From positions 16,508 to 80,507 of the forward strand of contig JADFPV010000001.1 in assembly GCA_022562155.1 (NCBI GenBank): a stretch of 64,000 nucleotides of DNA. Direction: 5' to 3'. Origin of the DNA: Chloroflexota bacterium. GTDB taxonomy: Bacteria > Chloroflexota > Dehalococcoidia > DSTF01 > RBG-16-68-14. The notes below the pieces were generated by a model. That model was given only the letters and a program-made list of their open reading frames with translations, had not been told where the DNA came from and ran no database searches. The position numbers were made by a program, and so were the translations under genes. How positions within the stretch are numbered: the first letter of the stretch is position 1; the number at the start of each line of letters is the position of its first letter. This document shows, piece by piece, positions 3,193 to 25,835 of this stretch.

Positions 3193-4254
3193 ATGTACAA
3201 GATTGCCGTAATCGGTGGCGATGGCATCGGCCCGGAGGTCGTCGCCGAGGGCCTGAAGGTCCTCGAAGCTGCGACCGCCAGGACCGGCGTCACGTACGAG
3301 CTGGAGCACTACGACCTGGGCGGTGAGCGCTATCTGCGCACCGGCGAGGCGCTCCCAGAGGGCATGGTCGACGAGTTGCGGGGCTTCGACGCGATCTTCC
3401 TGGGCGCCGTCGGCCACCCGGAGGTCGCCCCCGGCATCCTCGAGAAGGGGTTGCTGCTGCGCCTGCGCTTCGAGCTGGACCAGTACATCAACCTGCGCCC
3501 GGTGAAACTCTACCCCGGCGTCGAGACCCCCCTCGCCGGCAAGGGCCCGGAAGACATCGACTTCGTCGTCGTGCGCGAGAACACCGAGGGCCTCTACAGC
3601 GGCATGGGCGGTATCCAGTACAAGGGCACGCCGCAGGAGGTCTCGACGCAGATCCACATGACGACGCGCTTCGGCGCCGAGCGAGCGATCCGCTACGCGT
3701 TCGAGCTGACGCGAAAACGTGATCGCGAGAAGAAGCTGACGCTCTGCGCCAAGACCAACGTCCTCACGTTCGTTCACGACACCTGGTGGCGCGCGTTCAA
3801 CGAGGTCGGCGAGGCCGACTACCCGGACATCGAGCGCGACTACGCCCACGTCGACGCGACATCGATGTGGATGATCAAGAACCCGGAGTGGTTCGACGTC
3901 ATCGTCACCGAGAACATGTTCGGCGACATCATCACCGACATGGGCGCGATGATTCAGGGGGGCCTCGGCGTCGCCGCCGGCGGCAACATCAACCCGGACG
4001 GCGTCTCCATGTTCGAGCCGATCGGCGGCTCCGCGCCCAAGTACGCGGGCCAGAATGTCGCCTGCCCGATCGCCGCGATCTCCGCGGGCCAGATGCTGAT
4101 GGAGACGTTGGGCGAAGAAGAGACCGCCACCCGCATCGAGAGCGCCGTCGAACGCGCGCTGGCGTCTGGCAAGATCAAATCGCTCGCTGCGGGCAAGATG
4201 GGCATGTCCACCTCCGAAGTCGGCGACCTCATCGCAGGCTACGCAGGCGAGTAA
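3193..4254 (+). CDS. Isopropylmalate/isocitrate dehydrogenase superfamily enzyme, tartrate/D-malate dehydrogenase-like
   Basis: [17 protein letters not shown]-terminus; DQYINLRP; [12 protein letters not shown]; NMFGDIITD motifs. 353 aa. Confidence 0.65.
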
Positions 4255-5066: not shown

Positions 5067-6259
5067 GGCTCAGGAAGGCGTCCGCGAAGATCCTGCGGTT
5101 GGAACGGGCCCGGCTCCGCGATCAGGCGCCGCGCCGCATCGAGTTGCCCCCTGACGCCCCAGAGCAGGACACCCCGCACTCGCTCATCTTCCACGTAGTA
5201 GACAACGCCTCTCTTGTACGGCTCCTCGCTCCAGTCGCTGATGGTCTCGTGGCGAGCGTCGAGCTCCCCCACGGCCTGGTAGCCGAGGTCGAAAAAGTCG
5301 GTGTAGAAGTACGGCAGGTGGTCGTATGGCTCGCCGGCGCCCGCCATGTTTCTACCGGCCGCGCGCCCCATCACTCGCGCGTTGTCCTCGTGCTCCACCC
5401 GAACGCGGCGACCGAGCGCCGGGCTGGTGAACGCCGCGACGTCACCCGCGGCGAACACGTCAGGGTGCGACGTGCGCAGATATTCGTCGACGACGATGCC
5501 GTTCTCGACTTCAATGCCAGCCTGCTCGGCCAGTTCTGTGTTCGGAAGGAGGCCAAGGCCCGCGACCACGCCGTCGACTTCGAGTTCGCGTTCGTCGTGT
5601 TGGCCTTCGCCTTGCGCCCTCACCAAGAACTGCGCGCCGCGTTGTTCGACTCCGGTCACAAGAGTCTCGGTCAGCACCTCGACACCCTTGTCCTGGAAGT
5701 AGGTGGTGATGTGCTCCGAGAGATCACTCGGATATGCCAGGGCGCCGATGCCCGCCTCCGGGAAGATCATCGTTACCTGCTTGTCGTTCATGGCGAGCGC
5801 GGCCGCGATCTCCGACCCGATGAAACCGCCGCCAATCACGGCGAAGCGCTGACCTCGCTCAGTCTCCTCGCGCAGGCGGCGATAGTCAGCCAGCGTACGG
5901 AAGTAGTTGACGCCCTCAGCGTCGAACGGGAGGTGCCGGGGCCGACCACCGGTCGCGAGCAGGAGCTTATCGTACCCGAACTCCTCGCCATCTTCGGCGA
6001 CGACGCGCTTCTTGCCCGCGTCCAGTGTGTGGATCGTTCTGCCTGTGTGTAGCTCTGCCTGCTCGGCCGTCTTGTAGCCAATGCTCTCCAGCTTCATCTT
6101 CTTCCAGAGCCCCTTCGACAGTGGGGGCCGTCGGTAGGGGGCATCCGCTTCCTCGCTGACCACCCCGATCGATCCCTCGGCGTCGACCTCCCAGATACCT
6201 GCGACGGCCGCGTCGGCAGTCATCCCACCGCCGATGATCAGGTACTTGTAATCAGGCAT
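5057..6259 (-). CDS. FAD-dependent pyridine nucleotide-disulfide oxidoreductase (ferredoxin/rubredoxin reductase or AIF-like)
   Basis: N-terminal YLIIGGGMTADAA dinucleotide-binding motif; second Rossmann motif VIGGGFIGSEIAA; C-terminal dimerisation domain. Confidence 0.75.
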   Translation of the reverse strand: MPDYKYLIIGGGMTADAAVAGIWEVDAEGSIGVVSEEADAPYRRPPLSKGLWKKMKLESIGYKTAEQAELHTGRTIHTLDAGKKRVVAEDGEEFGYDKLLLATGGRPRHLPFDAEGVNYFRTLADYRRLREETERGQRFAVIGGGFIGSEIAAALAMNDKQVTMIFPEAGIGALAYPSDLSEHITTYFQDKGVEVLTETLVTGVEQRGAQFLVRAQGEGQHDERELEVDGVVAGLGLLPNTELAEQAGIEVENGIVVDEYLRTSHPDVFAAGDVAAFTSPALGRRVRVEHEDNARVMGRAAGRNMAGAGEPYDHLPYFYTDFFDLGYQAVGELDARHETISDWSEEPYKRGVVYYVEDERVRGVLLWGVRGQLDAARRLIAEPGPFQPQDLRGRLPEPRG

Positions 6260-6553
6260 GATGTCTAATTCCTCTTCGAGACTATGTCAGGCCGTCCGGC
6301 TCGCCGCATAGTATTGCGTGGACGAGGGCTAGGCAAGCATATTTGCCGGAGTTGTCCTCCAGATACGAAGGCGGTCCGAAAAACCCTTCCCAACCACGCA
6401 AGATACCCCTTAAGAGAGACTCGCTGGGACCCGGGTCGACTTAGGCTGGAGTTATCGATAAGCCGCGCGCTGTCGTTGTTCGTCTGGGCCCATTCAGATC
6501 AGCGCACGTAGGGCGCGCTGGTTCATCCTGAGCGAGGTAGGAGGAGGAATATC

Positions 6554-6940
6554 ATGAAGGGACTTGGCAAAGGCTCGCTGAGTGGTCTGGTGGCCATCGT
6601 TGGTGCGCTGTTTGTAATCGGAGTAGCGTGCGGCGGTTGGGGCGCTGGTAGCGATCCCTCGAAGGAGACGCCGTCTGTCGGCGTGACCGAAGTCCGCCTG
6701 GAGGACTTCGGGTTCGCGCCGGCGAACATCGTGATCGACGCCGGAACGACCGTCGCCTGGACGAATGACGACAACGTCGACCACACAGTGACGAGCGACG
6801 AAGGCGGCATATTCGACAGCTAACGCTTCGGCAAACACGGAACGTTCCGCCATACATTCGACACGCCTGGCGAATACTACTACCACTGCGAGCCACACTC
6901 CAACATGCACGGCCTCGTGACCGTGCTGCCCTTGCCGTAA
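6554..6940 (+). pseudogene. Cupredoxin (plastocyanin/amicyanin-like blue copper protein) interrupted by an in-frame TAA
   Basis: Signal/TM N-terminus; cupredoxin core VAWTNDDNVDHTVTSDEGGIFDS then TAA at 6821-6823. The same frame continues RFGKHGTFRHTFDTPGEYYYHCEPHSNMHGLVTVLP*, which carries the canonical C..H..M copper ligands. Confidence 0.6.
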
Positions 6941-7012
6941 CGAGTCGCGAGGCAGACGGGCCAGGCAATTGCTAGCTCGCACCTGCTTTCTTGGACCTCG
7001 GCTTAGGTGTGC

Positions 7013-7900
7013 TCAGTGCCGGAACCAGGGCACGAGTGCGGAGACGTGCTGCATCCGCTCGGCGTAAGCAGGCCGCCGTTGCAAGCTGCGCTTATCGAGC
7101 ATTGGGATGCTCACGATGAGGAACATGACGGTAATCGCCAGCGGGCCTGCAAGCGTCCACCACCAATCGCCGGGTCGTGCCGCAACACCGAAGAGCCAGA
7201 GGCCCCACCAGAACGAGATTTCGCCGAAGTAGTTCGGGTGGCGCGAGTGGCGCCAGAGGCCGCTGTCCATAGTCTCACCAGGTTCGCTCCTGCGGCCGAA
7301 TGCGCGCAGCTGTTCATCGGCTAGCGTTTCGATGGCTATGGCGCCCGCGGTGACGGTAACGGCAACGGCGTCGAGCCAGCCGAACGGGCGATGGCCGGCC
7401 ATAGCGGGGTAGAGCGCAAGGCAACCGAGGTACACCTGCAACGTGGGGAACAGATGGATGCCGGCGAAGCTCGCGCCCCAGTAGGCGCTGCCCGTGCTGC
7501 GTCGGATATCGGTATAGCGCCAATCCTCGTGATGCATGCCCGGCCAGCCTCGCGCCCAGTTGAACGTGAGACGCAGGCCCCACGCGGCGACGAGGGCGAG
7601 TACTAGCCAGTCTCGGGCGCCCCCATCCATGAAGTACAGGGCGATGATGGCCGGGGCAACGCTCCAATACGGATCGTACATCGACGAATTGCGCATGGTG
7701 ACGCTTGCCGCGAAGATCACTATTGTCCCGGTGAGGTCGGCCACAGCGACCACAGCGAGCGGGTACCAGTCGCGGACGGTCCAGCCGGCAGCCAGCGCCG
7801 CTGCCAGCGCGACGAGATACGCGACGACCACGACGGCAAACGCGGCCGGTCGGTTCAGTTCCCGGCCGACTTGAGGTTCAATGCTCGCGCTCACGACCAC
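7013..7900 (-). CDS. DUF1295 / steroid 5-alpha-reductase-like membrane protein
   Basis: Multi-TM; SRHPNYFGEISFWWG signature near C-terminus. Confidence 0.6.
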   Translation of the reverse strand: MVVSASIEPQVGRELNRPAAFAVVVVAYLVALAAALAAGWTVRDWYPLAVVAVADLTGTIVIFAASVTMRNSSMYDPYWSVAPAIIALYFMDGGARDWLVLALVAAWGLRLTFNWARGWPGMHHEDWRYTDIRRSTGSAYWGASFAGIHLFPTLQVYLGCLALYPAMAGHRPFGWLDAVAVTVTAGAIAIETLADEQLRAFGRRSEPGETMDSGLWRHSRHPNYFGEISFWWGLWLFGVAARPGDWWWTLAGPLAITVMFLIVSIPMLDKRSLQRRPAYAERMQHVSALVPWFRH

Positions 7901-7957
7901 ATGATACGTGACGCGTCGAGATTTCCCATGTGTAGGGGCGCATGGCCATGCGCCCAG

Positions 7958-8012
7958 CTCCCCCGGCGTCTATCCGCCGTCGGCGGAGGAGAGCGTAGCC
8001 CTACCGCATCAC
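7958..8012. repeat. Direct repeat copy A (ccggcgtcTATCCGCCGTCGGCGGAGGAGAgcGTaGCCCTACCGCA)
   Basis: ~47/52 identical to copy B at 9330..9385. Together they bracket the methyltransferase gene. Contains internal palindrome ccgccgtcggcgg. Confidence 0.7.
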
Positions 8013-8072
8013 TCGCCGCTCGCGTAAACACACTATGCTAAAGTCCGTCAACCACAGCAGGAGGGGGCGAGC

Positions 8073-9143
8073 ATGATTCTACGTATCGCAGCAGTCGGAG
8101 TTGTCTTCGCGCTCATCGCGGCTGCCCTGCGTAAAACGAGTTGGTACAGAACCAAGACCGCGTTTATCGGGTTGAAGCGTCTAGCAACGCTGTCCGAGGA
8201 GGACAAGCAAGCTGCTATCGACGGGTATAAATTCCTTCAACGAATGCAAGACGGTGAGAAGACCGAGACCGAGGATGAGACGAAAGCGGTCGCGGACTAT
8301 TACAAGGTCTTGAACAACGTGTTGTCGGTCTTCGATTTGGAGAAACTCTACCTCCCTCCATTGCTGAACGAATTTGAGGGTTTGTATGAGAATCAGTTGT
8401 TATGCGAACAAGCTGTGTTGCAGGAACTGAATCTAACGAACCCTGAAACGTCCCATCTATTGGATATGGGGTGCGGGAGAGGAAGAATTTCGCATTACCT
8501 CGCCACGCTGACCGGTGGCCAGGTATCCGGCTATAACATCGATCCGAATCAGATTGAAAACGCGATCGGCTGGGCCGCTGAATGTGGAATGAGCGATCGG
8601 CTCCACTTCAAAGTGGGCAATCATCACAATCCGCTTGAGTACGAATCAGGTACCTTCGATGGATGCTTTTCCTTCCAGGCCGTCTGGCCCTTCTTCAAGA
8701 AGGAGGAGCTGGATGACCATGCGAGAGAGATGTATCGCGTGTTGAAACCCGGAGCTCGATACTCTTGTTCTGAGTATTTGTTGACCCCTCATTTTGATTG
8801 GAACAACGAAGAGCATGTAACGCTTCAGAAAGCCTACCTTCCAACTCTGGCGGCCACTCAATCGATGTATCCAGCCGATGTCTGCGCCGCGTTGGAACGA
8901 GCGGGATTCAACATTCTCATTTCGGCGCCTTCGAGAGGCCCAGCCTGGCCGCTAGGCGAGCAGAAGCGCGATCTGATCTTGAGGGGCCGCAAAGTGGTCA
9001 GAGGCCTTGAGTCGATTCGCATGATGCCGCCATGGGTCGAAGAATTGCTCGAGCTACTTCAAACAGGTGGCCAGGCTTGGACGGATGCCGAAAAAGCTAA
9101 AATCGCCGATCTGAACTGGAGAATCGTCGCGGAGAAAGAATGA
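8073..9143 (+). CDS. Membrane-anchored class I SAM-dependent methyltransferase, sterol C-24 methyltransferase (ERG6/SMT)-like
   Basis: N-terminal TM helix. Motif I LLDMGCGRGRIS. FDGCFSFQAVWPF / MYRVLKPGARY / TPHFDWNNEEH regions parallel the ERG6 regions FDKVYAIEATCHAP / IYKVLKPGG / YDENNPEH (recalled from memory), but the YEYGWG sterol-binding motif is not conserved. Low-GC codon usage; strong RBS aggaggggg. Confidence 0.6.
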   Translation: MILRIAAVGVVFALIAAALRKTSWYRTKTAFIGLKRLATLSEEDKQAAIDGYKFLQRMQDGEKTETEDETKAVADYYKVLNNVLSVFDLEKLYLPPLLNEFEGLYENQLLCEQAVLQELNLTNPETSHLLDMGCGRGRISHYLATLTGGQVSGYNIDPNQIENAIGWAAECGMSDRLHFKVGNHHNPLEYESGTFDGCFSFQAVWPFFKKEELDDHAREMYRVLKPGARYSCSEYLLTPHFDWNNEEHVTLQKAYLPTLAATQSMYPADVCAALERAGFNILISAPSRGPAWPLGEQKRDLILRGRKVVRGLESIRMMPPWVEELLELLQTGGQAWTDAEKAKIADLNWRIVAEKE

Positions 9144-9179
9144 TCGTGTACGGTAAGGCAGCCAGCAAAGTCCAAGCTT

Positions 9180-9300
9180 ACCCGCAGGATAAGCCGTTCC
9201 GCAAAGCTGAGCCTACGCCTCAGCCTGTCACTCTGAGCGAAGCTGCCTGCCCTGAGCGGAGCCGAAGGGAAGAGGCTAATCCGCCTCGCCGACACGCTGG
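9180..9300. repeat. Cluster of short GC hairpins (gctgagcctacgcctcagc; gtcactctgagcgaagc; ctgccctgagcggagc)
   Basis: Read directly. The module ctgtcactctgagcg recurs at 62017..62040. Confidence 0.55.
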
Positions 9301-9329
9301 CAAACCAGCAGCACGACTCGCCGGCAGGT

Positions 9330-9385
9330 CCCCTCTCCCGGCGTTTATCCGCCGTTGGCGGAGGAGAAGGTGGCCCTACCGCAAA
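9330..9385. repeat. Direct repeat copy B (ccggcgttTATCCGCCGTTGGCGGAGGAGAagGTgGCCCTACCGCA)
   Basis: Pairs with 7958..8012. Confidence 0.7.
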
Positions 9386-9461
9386 GCGGGAGGGCCGGGT
9401 GAGCGCACCACGGCCAGCTCGCCGAGGTGGGCGGGACGGCGAGGACAGTGCGGATTGTGGG

Positions 9462-10298
9462 TCAGGCCTGCTTCAAACCCCGGGCCTTGATGAGGTCTTC
9501 AACCGTCTCGACCACAGTGGAAGCCTTGTAGACGACTCCCAGATCTATCATCTCTCTCGTCTTCACAAATGGTACCTGCGCCGTAGGGATTGACCTAAAA
9601 CCAATCTCTCCTTCATCTTCCCTATATGCGACTTGGCCGACCAGCCCGAGAAAGATGATCCTACTTCCCACCACGAGGCCCTTCATGGTCGAGTAACTGC
9701 CAACGTTGTGGATGAAGACTGGGCTTCCGCTTGAGCCCGGAAAGACCGATGCATCTATCAAAAAGACTGGTTCGCCGTTGTAATCGAGAGCCAGCGGCGT
9801 TGCGGTTGTCCCTCTTCGCATGATCGGCGTAAGGTTCTTGGTATCTAACAGACCGTTCGGATAGCCGACGAAAACCACCTCTTCCAGTGCATCTAGTTCC
9901 TCGATCTGCTCTTCTGTCGGAATCCAGTCGCTTGGGACGAACCTGAAGAAAATCTGCTTCTTCAGCTCCCTGATCTTCGTGATGAGGGGGCCCAAGGGCA
10001 TCACTGCTACGTCGACCTCGTCCCGGGGATGCCCGTGCCACTGTGAGGCGGCATCTTCAATTGTGAACCCGACGGCCTTCCCGATTACGGGTTCCTTGCC
10101 ATCGCTCGCTGTAAAGAAGAAACGAGCGGTCTCCGCGCGCTCCACTACGTGTTTGTTGGTCACAAGTACCGGTACGGCGGCGTCATCCTTGAGATAGTTG
10201 AATACGAACGTCGTAGCGGTACCAGCCCCAGTCGGGCCAACGGTCTCAAGCCGTACGGTACTGAAGAGAAGCTGTTGCGCTAGAGTTTCGACCTTCAT
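9462..10298 (-). CDS. Cytoplasmic trypsin-like (S1/Trypsin_2 fold) serine protease
   Basis: No signal peptide. His region VLVTNKHVV; catalytic Ser motif GSSGSPVF; Asp region. Lower GC than genome. Confidence 0.65.
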   Translation of the reverse strand: MKVETLAQQLLFSTVRLETVGPTGAGTATTFVFNYLKDDAAVPVLVTNKHVVERAETARFFFTASDGKEPVIGKAVGFTIEDAASQWHGHPRDEVDVAVMPLGPLITKIRELKKQIFFRFVPSDWIPTEEQIEELDALEEVVFVGYPNGLLDTKNLTPIMRRGTTATPLALDYNGEPVFLIDASVFPGSSGSPVFIHNVGSYSTMKGLVVGSRIIFLGLVGQVAYREDEGEIGFRSIPTAQVPFVKTREMIDLGVVYKASTVVETVEDLIKARGLKQA

Positions 10299-10313
10299 CT
10301 CTCGGTTGCGAGG

Positions 10314-10547
10314 CTACCTTGGCTCATAGCGAAGGGGCCGACCTTCAGCCCTAAACAGGTGCGGATACTTCCTTACTCGGGCACTGATCTGACTAGGAGG
10401 AGGGTAGTCGCCGTCGTGGCGAACGTAAAGGCCACGCCGCTCGATCTCGGCTGAGATCTCTCGCGCAGGTAGCTGGCGCCCTACCCTACGCAGGACGTCT
10501 AGTATCGCTTCGTGGAGCGTGACCTGCTCAGGCGTGCGATTCGGCAC
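10314..10547 (-). CDS. HARE-HTH (winged-helix) small DNA-binding protein
   Basis: TLHEAILDVLRRVGRQLPAREISAEIERRGLYV...ISARVRKYPHLFRAEGRPLRYE matches the HARE-HTH/Mrr_N-like pattern. Probable GTG start at 10547 with GGGAGAG SD (the tracked ORF extends to 10622). 15-nt gap to the protease start. Confidence 0.55.
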   Translation of the reverse strand: MPNRTPEQVTLHEAILDVLRRVGRQLPAREISAEIERRGLYVRHDGDYPPPSQISARVRKYPHLFRAEGRPLRYEPR

Positions 10548-10994
10548 TGGTACTCTCCCGGCTCTCGGTCCGCCACCTGACCCTAAGCGCTCTCGCTTCT
10601 GGCTTCTACTATCGCAACCCACCCGCTATCCTAGCACCTCGCCCACCGTATGCTCCGTCGGAGCGAACCGCTCCGGCTCGCTGGCGATCGTGACCACCGC
10701 AGCCGCCACCTTCTCCTGGCTGGCGGACGCGATCTGCAGGCCAGGACGCCACCATCCTCTTCAGGCTCTCGCTGCTAGCTGTTACGCTCGACAGGCCATC
10801 GTCCAAGTTACCCAACGGGTAGCCGGGTACCTTACCAACTAAATCGCACCGGCGTCGCGAAAAACAACGTGAATCTACCACCGGATTCAATCAACCAAAA
10901 CCGTCTAAAACGGCCTCGACTCGAATCTGACCGGTTTCCAAAACCGCGATTTTAATCAAACAATCAAAACGGCCAGATCAGTCGTAGGGGCGCT

Positions 10995-11045
10995 GCTCGC
11001 CGCGCCCTGCAGAAGCGAAGCTTCTGCCAAGCTGACCGCAGGTCA
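10995..11045. repeat. REP-like element (gcagaagcGAAgcttctgc + caagctgaccgcaggtcagcc)
   Basis: Same modules as 341, 2530 and 3040. Confidence 0.7.
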
Positions 11046-11666
11046 GCCGCCCGGCCGACGCAGTGCCTCGCCCGACTTGCTCGCTGCGAACGTCTCCGGG
11101 TCGAGCTGCAGCCCGAGGCCGTCGGCCATGCGCGTCAGGTAGTTGAACACCCCGACGATGTGCGCCACTTCCAGGCACTGCTCATCGTCAAACCCGAGGT
11201 CACGGAGCGGTTGCCAGTCCTCCTCCACCATCCGCGTCGGCGTCGCGCTCATCTTGTGCGCCACCTCGCATAGCGCCCGGTCTTTGGGAGACAGCTCAAG
11301 CTCCTGCCAGCGGTGCTCCTCAATCGCCTTCACCAGCTCATCGTCGCCGCCTTCAGTACGCAGAAACTCTGCGTGGGAGACCGTTCAGTAGTGGCAGTCC
11401 TGGCCCGCCGATGTCACAGCGGCCACCATCTCCCGCTCGCGACGGTTCAACGTGCCATCCTCGCTGAACATGATCTCGGAGAACAACTGTCCAAACTTGG
11501 CCCCGATGCGGCCGTGCGCCATGATCAGCCGCGCCATCGCCGGGAAGAAGCTGGTGAAGTCGTAAGGGTGGACCGGAGCCTCGCGGTCTTTGGGCGCGCC
11601 CGCCATCAGCTCTTCGCTTGTCGGTATCTTCACCCAGGCGTCAGTCGTCTTCTTCTCGGTCACCAT
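11043..11666 (-). CDS. AhpD-like / carboxymuconolactone decarboxylase family peroxidase-related protein with in-frame UGA (candidate selenoprotein)
   Basis: Tracked ORFs 11385..11666 and 11043..11333 are one frame separated only by TGA (11385-11387). Read through it gives ...SAGQDCHY[U]TVSHAEF..., matching the AhpD active site C-x-x-C-x-x-x-H with Sec at the second Cys. Confidence 0.6.
11350..11384 (-). promoter_or_regulatory. Candidate bacterial SECIS hairpin downstream of UGA
   Basis: mRNA UGA-ACGGUCUCCC-ACGCAG-AGUUU-CUGCGU: 6-7 bp perfect stem starting 10-11 nt after UGA, with G/U in the apical loop. Confidence 0.45.
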
Positions 11667-23591: not shown

Positions 23592-24836
23592 ATGGCCAAG
23601 AGTAAGAAGGCTTCGACGCCAGTGCTGGCGACGATCGAAGAAGCGATCGAGGAGTACCGCCAGGGTCGCTTCGTCATCATCATTGACCACGAGGACCGCG
23701 AGAACGAAGGCGACCTGACGCTGCCGGCGCAGTTTGTCGATGCGGACGCCGTCAACTTCATGGCCAAGTACGGCCGCGGCCTGATCTGCATCTCGATGAC
23801 GTCCGAACGTATCGACAAGCTTGGCATTCCGATGATGGTTGGCCGCAACGATTCGCACTTCGGCACGGCGTTCACGGTCACAGTCGAAGCCCGTTCAGGC
23901 GTCAGCACCGGTATCTCTGCCGCCGACCGCGCCCGCACCGTGGAGGTGCTGATCGACCCGAGGACGCGTCCCGAGGACGTGGTCATGCCTGGCCACATGT
24001 TCCCGCTGCGCGCTCGCGACGGTGGCGTGCTGGTGCGTGCCGGCCAAACGGAAGCCGTGGTAGACCTCTGCCGCTTGGCCGGGCTCAACCCTGCCGGTGT
24101 CTGCTGCGAGATGATGAAGGCAGACGGCACCATGGCGCGGCTGCCGGACCTCAAGCGCTTTGCCACACGGCATAAGATGAAGATCATCAGCGTTGACCAG
24201 CTCATCGCGTATCGGAAGCAGAATGAGCGCTTGATCGAGCGGTCCGAGGAGACTGTGTTGCCCACCAAGTTTGGTGAGTGGAAGGCGTATGCGTACAAGA
24301 GCCCGATCGATGCCGATGAGCATGTCGCGCTTGTGATGGGGGACATCTCGGAGGGCGGGCCGGTCCTCGTCCGCGTCCACAGCCAGTGCCTCACTAGCGA
24401 CGTCTTTGGCAGCCAACGCTGCGACTGCGGTGAGCAACTCGAGATGGCGATGGGCATGATTGCTGAGGAAGGGCGAGGCGTCATCGTCTACATGCGTCAG
24501 GAGGGCCGTGGTATCGGCCTGCACAACAAGATGCGGGCCTACGCATTGCAGGACGAAGGCCTAGACACCGTCGAGGCGAATCAGGCGCTCGGTTTTCCGG
24601 CCGACCGCCGCGACTATGGCATCGGCATGCAGATCCTCGTTGATCTCGGTGTCACGGATATCCGTCTTCTCACCAACAACCCGACCAAACGGGCGGGCCT
24701 GGAAGGCTACGGGCTGAAAATCGTCGAGCGCGTACCGATCGAAGTCGAACCGAACGCGCACAACGTCCGCTACCTGGAAACCAAGCGCACGAAGCTGGGC
24801 CACCAGCTCAATTCGCACGAGGAAGGAAGCCTCTAG
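23592..24836 (+). CDS. ribBA: Bifunctional DHBP synthase / GTP cyclohydrolase II
   Basis: RENEGDL (RibB) and CDCG..GRGIGL (RibA) motifs. Confidence 0.95.
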   Translation: MAKSKKASTPVLATIEEAIEEYRQGRFVIIIDHEDRENEGDLTLPAQFVDADAVNFMAKYGRGLICISMTSERIDKLGIPMMVGRNDSHFGTAFTVTVEARSGVSTGISAADRARTVEVLIDPRTRPEDVVMPGHMFPLRARDGGVLVRAGQTEAVVDLCRLAGLNPAGVCCEMMKADGTMARLPDLKRFATRHKMKIISVDQLIAYRKQNERLIERSEETVLPTKFGEWKAYAYKSPIDADEHVALVMGDISEGGPVLVRVHSQCLTSDVFGSQRCDCGEQLEMAMGMIAEEGRGVIVYMRQEGRGIGLHNKMRAYALQDEGLDTVEANQALGFPADRRDYGIGMQILVDLGVTDIRLLTNNPTKRAGLEGYGLKIVERVPIEVEPNAHNVRYLETKRTKLGHQLNSHEEGSL

Positions 24837-24844
24837 CGGGCGCA

Positions 24845-25315
24845 ATGGGCACGACCTATCAGGGCGATCTGGACGGAGCAGGGCTGCACATAGCCATCGC
24901 GGTGTCTCGCTTCAACGAACCCGTCACCTCAAGACTGCTCGAAGGCGCTCGCAAGGCGCTGGAGCGGCACGGTGTCGAAGACAAAAACGTTGCCGTCGCG
25001 TGGACGCCCGGGGCCTTCGAGCTGCCGCCGGTGGCTCGGGCCTTCGCGGAGTCGGGAGCGTATGATGCGGTTGTCTGCCTGGGAGCAGTGATCCGCGGCG
25101 AGACGTCCCATTTCGACTTCATTTCAGCCGAGACAGCGCGGGGGATCGGCCAAGTCTCCGCTGATACGGGTGTCCCTGTGATCTTCGGCGTTATCACGCC
25201 GAACACGCTGGAGCAGGCCCTTGATAGGGCGGGGGGCAAGGCCGACAAGGGGTATGATGCCGTTGTCAGCGCCATCGAGATGGCGAACCTGATGCGGAAG
25301 ATACGGCCTGAGTGA
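24845..25315 (+). CDS. ribH: 6,7-dimethyl-8-ribityllumazine synthase
   Basis: Canonical RibH ~155 aa; AWTPGAFELP motif. Confidence 0.95.
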   Translation: MGTTYQGDLDGAGLHIAIAVSRFNEPVTSRLLEGARKALERHGVEDKNVAVAWTPGAFELPPVARAFAESGAYDAVVCLGAVIRGETSHFDFISAETARGIGQVSADTGVPVIFGVITPNTLEQALDRAGGKADKGYDAVVSAIEMANLMRKIRPE

Positions 25316-25409
25316 CAGATCGTTCCAAGTTGCCCATAGGAAGATCGGTGGTATGCTAAAGGTCTGAGCATCCCTGCTCTCCTACCTGGCATTCTGAGGA
25401 GGTCCCGCT

Positions 25410-25835
25410 ATGACCCGCGCCGCTGAGCGCCCCACGGCCGTGGAACCTGAAGATGACATGACCGAGATGGACCAAGATGAGCTGTGGCAACATGGTGTCG
25501 AAGGCGAAGCGCCCGACAACGCGACGACCCAGGCACTCAATCTTGCTCATCGTGCAACGGAGAAGTTCCCCGAGCTGGCTAAGCGTTACAGGGCCTACGC
25601 CGGTCCTGCCGCTATCGTGTCCGGCGCGTTGATGGCACTGGCCGGTGTCGCCGTAGCGAGGCGGCTAAGGCGAGGCCAGCACCCAGATGAGATCCTCGAG
25701 CAAATCACGTCTGAGGAGATCGAACGCGCAGCCGGAGTCAGCAATCGCCAGAATCGCGTCTGGCGTATGGTGAAGCGCATCGCGCGACGCCGCTACGGTT
25801 CGAATAGCGAAACGACCACACCCTCGGACGAGTAG
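25410..25835 (+). CDS. Hypothetical protein (acidic N-terminus, one TM)
   Basis: ORF only. Confidence 0.35.
   Translation: MTRAAERPTAVEPEDDMTEMDQDELWQHGVEGEAPDNATTQALNLAHRATEKFPELAKRYRAYAGPAAIVSGALMALAGVAVARRLRRGQHPDEILEQITSEEIERAAGVSNRQNRVWRMVKRIARRRYGSNSETTTPSDE

Follow-up and report, generated by a model that had tools for sequence, protein, structure and literature searches.

A methyltransferase gene of the sterol methyltransferase superfamily and its flanking direct repeats in a Chloroflexota contig

The methyltransferase gene and its relation to sterol methyltransferases

This analysis concerns a methyltransferase gene within a 64-kb stretch of a Chloroflexota contig (GenBank assembly GCA_022562155.1, contig JADFPV010000001.1, positions 16,508 to 80,507 of the forward strand; 64,000 nt in all, referred to here as the window and numbered from its first base). 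The gene is an intact open reading frame (ORF) of 356 codons at 8073–9143 on the plus strand, preceded by an AGGAGG Shine–Dalgarno sequence at 8059–8064, eight bases before its ATG, and it is bracketed by two 51-nt direct repeats designated R1 and R2. An initial annotation took the product to be a membrane-anchored relative of the sterol C-24 methyltransferases (SMTs; ERG6 in yeast), and proposed that the gene was a recent insertion of eukaryotic type which had left the repeats behind. By the comparisons described below, the protein belongs to the SMT superfamily, yet falls in a distinct sister clade, here called the EKMYIPP clade, without the features that define SMTs. The features of the locus are as follows.

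7013–7900, minus strand: native DUF1295 gene, encoding a steroid-5-alpha-reductase-like membrane protein
7958–8008, plus strand: direct repeat R1, 51 nt, intergenic between the DUF1295 gene (minus strand) and the methyltransferase gene (plus strand); a duplicated segment of 1375 bp is proposed to begin here
8012–8072, plus strand: conserved 5′ leader of the Chloroflexota-type gene unit, containing the AGGAGG sequence
8073–9143, plus strand: coding sequence (CDS), 356 aa, class I S-adenosylmethionine (SAM)-dependent methyltransferase of the SMT superfamily (EKMYIPP clade)
8073–8132, plus strand: N-terminal hydrophobic helix, codons 1–20, predicted signal anchor or transmembrane helix, in Chloroflexota-type variants only
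8292–8372, plus strand: clade-specific segment replacing SMT Region I, residues 74–100, ADYYKVLNNVLSVFDLEKLYLPPLLNE, with a five-residue gap opposite ERG6 YEYGW
8445–8765, plus strand: Rossmann-fold SAM-binding core, residues ~125–231, with motif I LLDMGCGRGRIS (Pfam Methyltransf_25/11/31)
8946–9140, plus strand: C-terminal helices and final strand, residues ~292–356, aligned by profile to ERG6 ~305–369 (the Sterol_MT_C region) and below Pfam detection
9144–9332, plus strand: 3′ spacer from the stop codon to R2, of which the first 10–12 nt are common to other Chloroflexota-type loci and the remainder is unique here
9333–9383, plus strand: direct repeat R2, 51 nt, matching R1 at 88% identity; all that is proposed to remain of a second copy

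The base composition of the gene sets it apart from the rest of the window. Its GC content is 0.522 and its GC content at third codon positions (GC3) is 0.610. The 36 ORFs in the window that reach 250 aa average 0.634 and 0.772, and by both measures this gene ranks lowest among them; the earlier remark that it is AT-richer than its surroundings stands, the composition being unlike that of the neighbours. A search of Rfam with 7800–9600 returned sub-threshold miRNA noise only, a scan around the gene for sigma-70 promoters and intrinsic terminators found none, and no hairpin is supported in the conserved 5′ leader (consensus fold −1.8 kcal/mol).

The motifs quoted in the initial annotation are all present in the translation (LLDMGCGRGRIS, FDGCFSFQAVWPF, MYRVLKPGARY, TPHFDWNNEEH and FDLEKLYLPPLL), and motif I is invariant in an alignment of 25 family sequences (alignment A1). 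Scans against Pfam and NCBIfam detect generic class I methyltransferase domains only, the cut-offs being exceeded by Methyltransf_25 (58 bits) and Methyltransf_11 (53 bits), and the protein has the Rossmann SAM domain with motif I, of the form (hh)D(hG)CGxG, by which class I SAM-dependent methyltransferases are recognised. An AlphaFold2 (AF2) model built from a deep alignment has a pLDDT of 92.9, and its strands and helices alternate in a way that fits a Rossmann-type core. With its intact SAM-binding core, good ribosome-binding site and the purifying selection described below, the ORF is predicted to encode a functional class I SAM-dependent methyltransferase. The added N-terminal helix is also there: residues 1–19 have a mean Kyte–Doolittle hydropathy of 2.53, the only stretch of transmembrane grade in the protein, and the model has a helix at residues 2–18. 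This 356-aa form with the helix is restricted to Chloroflexota-type variants, and the canonical protein found elsewhere begins near residue 22 of the window protein (MNWYR...). A PADLOC match to 'mad2' was disregarded, being confined to the generic methyltransferase core.

For comparison with SMTs (ERG6/SMT1; EC 2.1.1.41), which combine the Pfam domains Methyltransf_11 and Sterol_MT_C, we used a yeast ERG6 sequence, validated by a Pfam match to Sterol_MT_C at 97 bits. BLASTP aligns the window protein to it with 29% identity over residues 59–284 (E = 5e-21, 80 bits), and hhalign, starting from the family alignment, pairs query residues 65–356 with ERG6 62–369 over 280 columns at a probability of 99.3%, so that homology to a bona fide SMT extends over the full length. 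The ERG6 parallels given in the initial annotation prove to be real alignments (FDKVYAIEATC with FDGCFSFQAVW, IYKVLKPGG with MYRVLKPGA, and YDENNPEH with FDWNNEEH), and the SAM motif and the C-terminal helices and strand ending in ...VAxKP are likewise shared, at 27–29% identity overall. The C-terminal region is homologous but divergent, with query residues ~300–356 opposite ERG6 305–369. Sterol_MT_C (PF08498) is not reported in the window protein by Pfam even at E ≤ 1, although it is detected in 7 of the 51 members of a broad alignment. The initial annotation had held that a purely generic profile result would count against an SMT relationship; taken literally this is the Pfam outcome, with Methyltransf_11/25 only, whereas the profile–profile comparison shows C-terminal homology to Sterol_MT_C.

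The differences from ERG6 are as consistent as the likenesses. Region I, the sterol-binding YEYGWGxSFHF segment, is missing; a five-residue gap falls exactly at YEYGW and the window protein has SVFDLEKLYLPP instead, the replacement taking the form LEKLY(I/L)PP, so that BLASTP and hhalign together bear out the idea of an SMT-superfamily methyltransferase with its sterol-binding region replaced. Gln202, opposite ERG6 E195, is invariant in alignment A1. Unlike ERG6, the window protein carries the extra transmembrane helix, and its subfamily resides in bacterial hosts, mostly of lineages not known as sterol makers. Neither among the recurrent neighbours in 80 neighbourhoods nor among the called genes within flanks of up to 5–10 kb did we recognise a sterol-pathway gene. 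The criteria used by Brown et al. (2023; PMC10070321) for bacterial SMTs ask for a BLASTP match to ERG6 at E ≤ 1e-50 with at least 30% identity and for both domains; the window protein falls short on each count (29%, E = 5e-21, one domain missing), although an E-value from a two-sequence comparison is not strictly comparable with one from a database search.

Structural comparison leads to the same neighbourhood as ERG6. The best Foldseek matches to the AF2 model in the PDB are AtmM/RebM, 2o57, SpnF, MitM, TleD, geranyl diphosphate (GPP) C-methyltransferase and BezA, mostly the same entries as the best PDB sequence hits of ERG6 itself, a search that found no bona fide SMT structure; a PDB sequence search with the window protein gives natural-product methyltransferases at ~38 bits. 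TleD, GPP 2-C-methyltransferase, BezA and RebM/AtmM/MitM share with it a Rossmann core and helical lid (Foldseek E 1e-16 to 1e-14, target-normalised TM-scores of 0.66–0.87), but at only 14–21% identity, and the TleD/GPP 2-C-methyltransferase/BezA/RebM group has neither the N-terminal helical region of ~100 residues nor a C-terminal extension of SMT type. The cyclopropane-fatty-acyl-phospholipid and mycolic acid synthases (CMAS) resemble it in that they too are encoded by solo genes which move horizontally, and act on a ubiquitous membrane olefin, and there is a weak match to CMAS (PF02353; residues 104–248, profile positions 43–179 of 273), but at 26.0 bits it lies below the gathering cut-off of 27 and the similarity to SMTs is far stronger.

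An exhaustive search of 1.84 billion cluster representatives returns full-length relatives at 25–43% identity, in nearly all of which LCxLGxxEKMYIPP replaces YEYGWGxSFHF; YEYGWG (as YEYGWGESFHF) occurs in only 1 of the 41 distant representatives that we aligned (alignment A4). The window protein belongs with them by its LEKLYLPP, a form of the clade motif E(K/R)(M/L)Y(I/L)PP, its ...RIVAEKE ending and its full-length alignment to representatives. Members of the clade, which include proteins of Chlamydiota, Legionella lytica, Mastigamoeba, Ophiostoma and archaeal metagenome-assembled genomes (MAGs), share with it a length of ~335–360 aa, the Region I replacement, the Q-for-E substitution, the ...VAxKP ending and a mostly solo gene. 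The window subfamily differs in being far tighter (at least 72% identity) and in having invariant residues of its own, such as FDWNNEEH and ADLNWRIVAEK. Source names label relatives in Ophiostoma, Mastigamoeba and Joint Genome Institute (JGI) metagenomes 'sterol C-methyltransferase', and one archaeal relative barely passes the Sterol_MT_C threshold. A profile of the distant relatives retrieves mostly ~353-aa proteins, those with organism names being from environmental Chlamydiota. Our literature searches found no characterisation of either the clade or the window subfamily.

The wider clade is concentrated in amoeba-associated bacteria (environmental Chlamydiota and Legionella) and occurs also in Mastigamoeba and a fungus, a distribution that hints at inter-domain transfer of an SMT-like clade. 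Amoeba-associated bacteria are known to carry sterol-modifying genes. One 30%-identical member is a solo gene (L088; L numbers are our own for loci) on the Legionella lytica megaplasmid NZ_CP071528.1, at 24674–25687, and is the only case of plasmid carriage, there being no close plasmid copies in the collections searched.

Distribution, origin and flanking repeats

A word-indexed search gives 842 homologues of the window protein, the best 120 at 78–95% identity. Taking one genome per species, a relative is encoded at 168 loci, and the best 80 of these (77–95% identity) lie in MAGs of Chloroflexota, Myxococcota/Polyangiales, SAR86, Halieaceae, Spongiibacteraceae, Lysobacterales, Rhodobacterales, Actinomycetota (including Nocardioides), Binatia and Desulfobacteria, with one bin labelled Nitrosopumilus. 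The contig in that last bin (L074) has a flank GC of 0.65 and a gene GC3 of 0.82 and groups with Binatia in our tree, and is probably mis-binned rather than an archaeal copy.

The least similar pair in this subfamily is 72% identical, and dN/dS values of 0.05–0.17 indicate strong purifying selection; the invariant core in alignment A1 contains many aromatic and hydrophobic residues. Gene GC3 runs from 0.26 in SAR86 to 0.98 in Nocardioides and follows the host, so most copies have long been resident, and identity of at least 72% across phyla over such a range of composition implies that constraint is very strong and that transfer has happened repeatedly. In the neighbour-joining tree the sequences group broadly by taxon. 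Genomic contexts are unrelated between loci and the gene is nearly always solo. The distribution thus shows a gene that appears to have spread horizontally, as a self-sufficient single unit, among marine and sediment bacteria of many phyla, where it probably provides an important one-step function. Phage or viral carriage was considered and rejected, as neither IMG/VR nor INPHARED contains a copy.

Some neighbours do recur. A WS/DGAT wax-ester/triacylglycerol synthase gene lies divergently adjacent (19–153 nt) in several Myxococcota loci (L021, L027, L028 and L039; also L015, L025 and L064), and a group of Sulfotransfer_3, DUF1214-like and SDR genes lies within 0.7–3.7 kb in about four independent lineages (L004, L029, L058, L059, L060 and L077), L004 being from Chloroflexota.

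The closest relatives of the window copy are in its own phylum. The methyltransferases of two Chloroflexota MAGs are 94–95% identical to it, and the sample behind one of these MAGs also yielded a contig with a DUF1295 that is 86% identical to the native one of the window. At least five Chloroflexota-type contigs carry the same variant, leader and transmembrane extension included, and the contexts of the five Chloroflexota-type loci are all different. DNA homology between the window and the others is confined to 8036–9153 (88–94% identical), a block running from ~40 nt of leader to ~12 nt beyond the stop codon; the leader homology starts at ~8036 with L004, L005 and L090, and at 8012 with a solo leader copy in L090.

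In the tree the window copy groups with L004 and L005 inside a Myxococcota/'delta' clade, with a dS of 0.47 to L007. Judged from this position, nested among bacterial members of a tight bacterial subfamily, the source of the Chloroflexota copy is not eukaryotic, contrary to the earlier proposal. Nor does the acquisition look recent. The methyltransferases of the window, L004 and L005 differ from each other by a dS of 0.28–0.51, which is on the order of that of the native DUF1295 (0.27–0.74), and together with the sharing of one variant by at least five contigs this makes the acquisition old. Horizontal acquisition as such is upheld by the foreign composition, the cross-phylum distribution and the tree position. 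The simplest reading is that an ancestor of these Chloroflexota acquired the gene once, probably from a Myxococcota-type donor, and that its composition has ameliorated little in the time since then.

The DUF1295 gene provides a native standard for gene order. Its DNA is 82–89% identical to orthologues on L085, L086 and L087, with different neighbours in each, and among orthologues at 82–92% identity only the CDS aligns and all contexts differ; gene order is therefore generally fluid in the lineage.

R1 and R2 are identical at 45 of 51 positions (88%; blastn E = 2.6e-14), and their longest perfect match is 11 nt. They bracket the gene in direct orientation as the initial annotation described, although over a slightly shorter extent (7958–8008 and 9333–9383, where it gave 7958–8012 and 9330–9385). 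It had also suggested looking for the repeat elsewhere: a 22-nt core has two sites in the window, with 0 expected in shuffles, and in 241 million metagenome records a single match of 29 nt, a chance one inside an unrelated coding sequence. A dispersed element of the repetitive extragenic palindromic or miniature inverted-repeat type was rejected on these counts.

Direct repeats around the gene are a recurrent feature of the Chloroflexota-type loci. They are found at 4 of the 5 such loci, at 5 of 69 other loci and in 4 of 105 shifted control intervals (Fisher p = 6e-5). In each case they consist of local sequence: L004 has repeats of 46 and 258 nt (80–89% identical), and L089 has one of 185 nt (93%). 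L090 carries two full copies of the gene, 98.4% identical over 1328 nt with a period of 1320, along with a fragment of the upstream lactamase gene. The array in L090 (1182–4299) also holds older, partial copies: there are at least two solo leader copies of ~40–66 nt (3840–3903 and 4091–4149), and at 4129–4244 there is an 83%-identical copy of the upstream flank, where the contig ends, possibly within a further copy. The canonical gene can be duplicated likewise. In L044, a 'delta proteobacterium' long-read MAG, a 2-kb tandem duplication at 5487–9013 repeats a unit made up of a gene for a 130-aa membrane protein and a canonical 337-aa methyltransferase gene, with 96% identity over the 514-nt duplicated upstream flank. 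Across loci the repeats range from 51 to ~300 nt in length and from 0.016 to 0.235 in divergence, and their sequences and the non-homologous ends of the segments vary from locus to locus.

No integrase, transposase or recombinase gene adjoins the methyltransferase in the window, and ARAGORN finds no tRNA or tmRNA gene in its 64 kb. Repeats and segment ends that vary by locus, with no recombinase or tRNA gene nearby, argue against a discrete mobile element, and we rejected an insertion sequence, transposon, integron cassette or integrative element for want of a recombinase, defined termini and uniform repeats. The best reading of R1 and R2 is instead that they are the scar of a segmental tandem duplication, because flanking repeats recur at 4 of the 5 Chloroflexota-type loci, one of them an intact tandem duplication; direct orientation, local flanking sequence and intact duplicates in related loci all agree with this. 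Adaptive tandem gene amplification followed by decay is known from experimental evolution, and the loci resemble it in their local direct repeats, units of 1.3–2.7 kb, intact recent duplicates in sister loci and varied repeat ages. The window differs in that no more than 51 nt of the proposed second copy would remain.

Proposed history and acceptor

We propose, with middling confidence in the account as a whole, that a Chloroflexota lineage long ago took its EKMYIPP-clade methyltransferase gene from a Myxococcota-type donor. The gene would then have gained the 20-residue N-terminal membrane anchor and kept its low GC content while it was reshuffled into different contexts. In the window lineage the 1375-bp segment 7958–9332 carrying the gene would have been tandemly duplicated, and the second copy later deleted apart from its first 51 nt, now R2. 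The enzyme would methylate a hydrophobic, probably lipid- or isoprenoid-type, non-sterol acceptor. This acceptor is our best guess, suggested by SMT-lineage ancestry with the sterol-binding segment replaced, by the aromatic-rich invariant core and the membrane anchor of the Chloroflexota variant, and by lipid-related neighbours (WS/DGAT in several Myxococcota loci, DUF1295 in the window).

Several points tell against parts of this account. The tree was built by neighbour-joining from p-distances and carries no support values. Neither an empty site nor a pre-duplication state was found by way of the DUF1295 orthologues, because synteny is fluid even for this native gene. As L090 was assembled from short reads at low coverage, its tandem array could partly be an effect of assembly. 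An insertion that duplicated its target would leave the same end state as duplication and deletion. On the side of function, the recurrent neighbours occur at a minority of loci only, the Foldseek neighbours include O- and N-methyltransferases as well, so that C-methylation is only a candidate reaction, and, as no member of the clade has been characterised, the assignment of a substrate rests on homology and loose neighbourhood hints.

For the history, the stronger alternative is that the repeats are the footprint of an insertion, either of a gene fragment at a staggered break that duplicated a 51-nt target, or of a circularised fragment integrated Campbell-style at a homeologous 51-nt stretch. 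This stays live because the state before the event was not found, and we regard it as the less probable course. It would account for a gene of foreign composition whose low-GC segment is bracketed exactly by repeats that are not a dispersed element, and local-sequence repeats surround the gene in L004 and L089 also. Against this, the lengths of the repeats (51, 185 and ~300 nt) and the ends of the inserts vary, leaving no defined termini; the window has no integrase or transposase next to the gene; R1 and R2 nowhere agree perfectly over more than 11 nt; and since divergence among the Chloroflexota copies equals that of a native gene, such an insertion would in any case not be recent. The intact tandem duplications, of this gene in L090 and of its canonical form in L044, together with repeats made of local sequence that vary between loci, speak against reading the repeats as marks of insertion, as the initial annotation had done.

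For the function, a small-molecule O-, N- or S-methyltransferase acting in detoxification, natural-product resistance or osmolyte synthesis is a possible alternative, which we likewise hold to be the less probable. Selection for a single-step function would explain the solo spread, the amplification and the occurrence in variable or defence islets: the gene is solo in nearly all contexts, tandem amplification is typical of dosage selection, RebM/AtmM/MitM and sarcosine/dimethylglycine methyltransferase are among the structural neighbours, and genomic neighbours include PDC-S45 in the window, SLFN_AlbA_2 in L001, and an rve integrase with ParE in L003. Indeed the solo nature and recurrent amplification fit a detoxifying or other small-molecule methyltransferase equally well. 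What favours a lipid-type acceptor over such substrates is that the match to ERG6 scores 80 bits, about double the score of the best-matching natural-product methyltransferase of solved structure (38 bits). The many aromatic and hydrophobic residues of the invariant core, the membrane anchor of the Chloroflexota variant, and WS/DGAT or DUF1295 genes adjacent in some loci point the same way.

A genuine sterol C-24 methyltransferase, working on endogenous or scavenged sterols, is very improbable. Full-length homology to ERG6, the automatic JGI annotation 'sterol 24-C-methyltransferase', the few distant relatives that pass the Sterol_MT_C threshold and the frequency of the wider clade in amoeba-associated bacteria, with their sterol-modifying genes, are what might recommend it. 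They are outweighed by the missing Sterol_MT_C match, the deletion of YEYGW, the invariant Gln opposite ERG6 E195 and the failure of any sterol-pathway gene to recur in 80 neighbourhoods; SAR86, Nocardioides and Chloroflexota are not known to produce sterols. The protein also lies far from the published criteria for bacterial SMTs (Brown et al. 2023; PMC10070321). Equally improbable is a functional role for R1 and R2 in cis, for example in binding a protein or terminating transcription, or a chance resemblance between them. The promoter region that holds R1 is divergent, the 3′ region that holds R2 is convergent, and each repeat has a short GC-rich palindrome, but on neither strand do they fold better than shuffles (z −0.3 to −1.3), there is no promoter or terminator consensus, Rfam match or further copy in the window or metagenomes, and the blastn E-value excludes chance.

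Returning to a lipid-type acceptor, a more specific and decidedly speculative version is that the protein is a single-gene, horizontally spreading olefin C-methyltransferase of SMT descent, retargeted to a non-sterol lipid or isoprenoid. If this were true, the enzyme would make an unrecognised methylated lipid in many marine and sediment bacteria (SAR86, Halieaceae, Myxococcota, Chloroflexota and Actinomycetota), a possible new source of biomarkers, and because of the gene metagenomes would systematically yield false calls of a 'bacterial sterol methyltransferase'. Methylation of the sterane side chain serves as a biomarker of eukaryotes and sponges, and surveys of metagenomes now count bacterial SMT homologues (Brown et al. 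2023; PMC10070321). The automatic annotation 'sterol 24-C-methyltransferase' is attached to dozens of the gene's closest matches and of the wider clade despite the missing sterol-binding segment, so that recognising a separate clade prevents over-counting of bacterial SMTs. The significance of the subfamily lies in its extreme conservation, its spread across phyla and this systematic mislabelling, and since cultured or near-complete hosts exist (Nocardioides, Halieaceae and complete Myxococcales MAG chromosomes), the question of its function is open to experiment. Complete MAG chromosomes with the gene include CP070713.1, CP070650.1 and OY968771.1.

Neighbouring genes

To the right of R2 lies a second compositional outlier.

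9462–10298, minus strand: trypsin-like protease, 278 aa, adjacent to the methyltransferase gene; PADLOC phage-defence candidate PDC-S45 (full-length match, E = 6.6e-95)

The PDC-S45 gene has a GC content of 0.548 and a GC3 of 0.651, the second-lowest GC3 in the window, and is followed by a gene for a 102-aa HARE-HTH protein. Together the two form a module at 9462–10622 (minus strand) that looks like a separately acquired defence-type module beside the methyltransferase. With such an outlier as its neighbour, the methyltransferase gene would therefore sit in a small variable, horizontally acquired islet.

Further along, at 11043–11666 (minus strand), two CMD/AhpD-like ORFs make up one frame of 207 codons interrupted by a single in-frame TGA (11387–11385). 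The context of the TGA, C-H-Y-TGA-T-V-S-H, fits a CxxU(Sec)xxxH redox motif (U or Sec, selenocysteine), and a hairpin, CGCAGA-GTT-TCTGCG, begins ~13 nt downstream. The product is probably a selenocysteine-containing AhpD-like protein, with the hairpin as a putative bacterial selenocysteine insertion sequence (SECIS).

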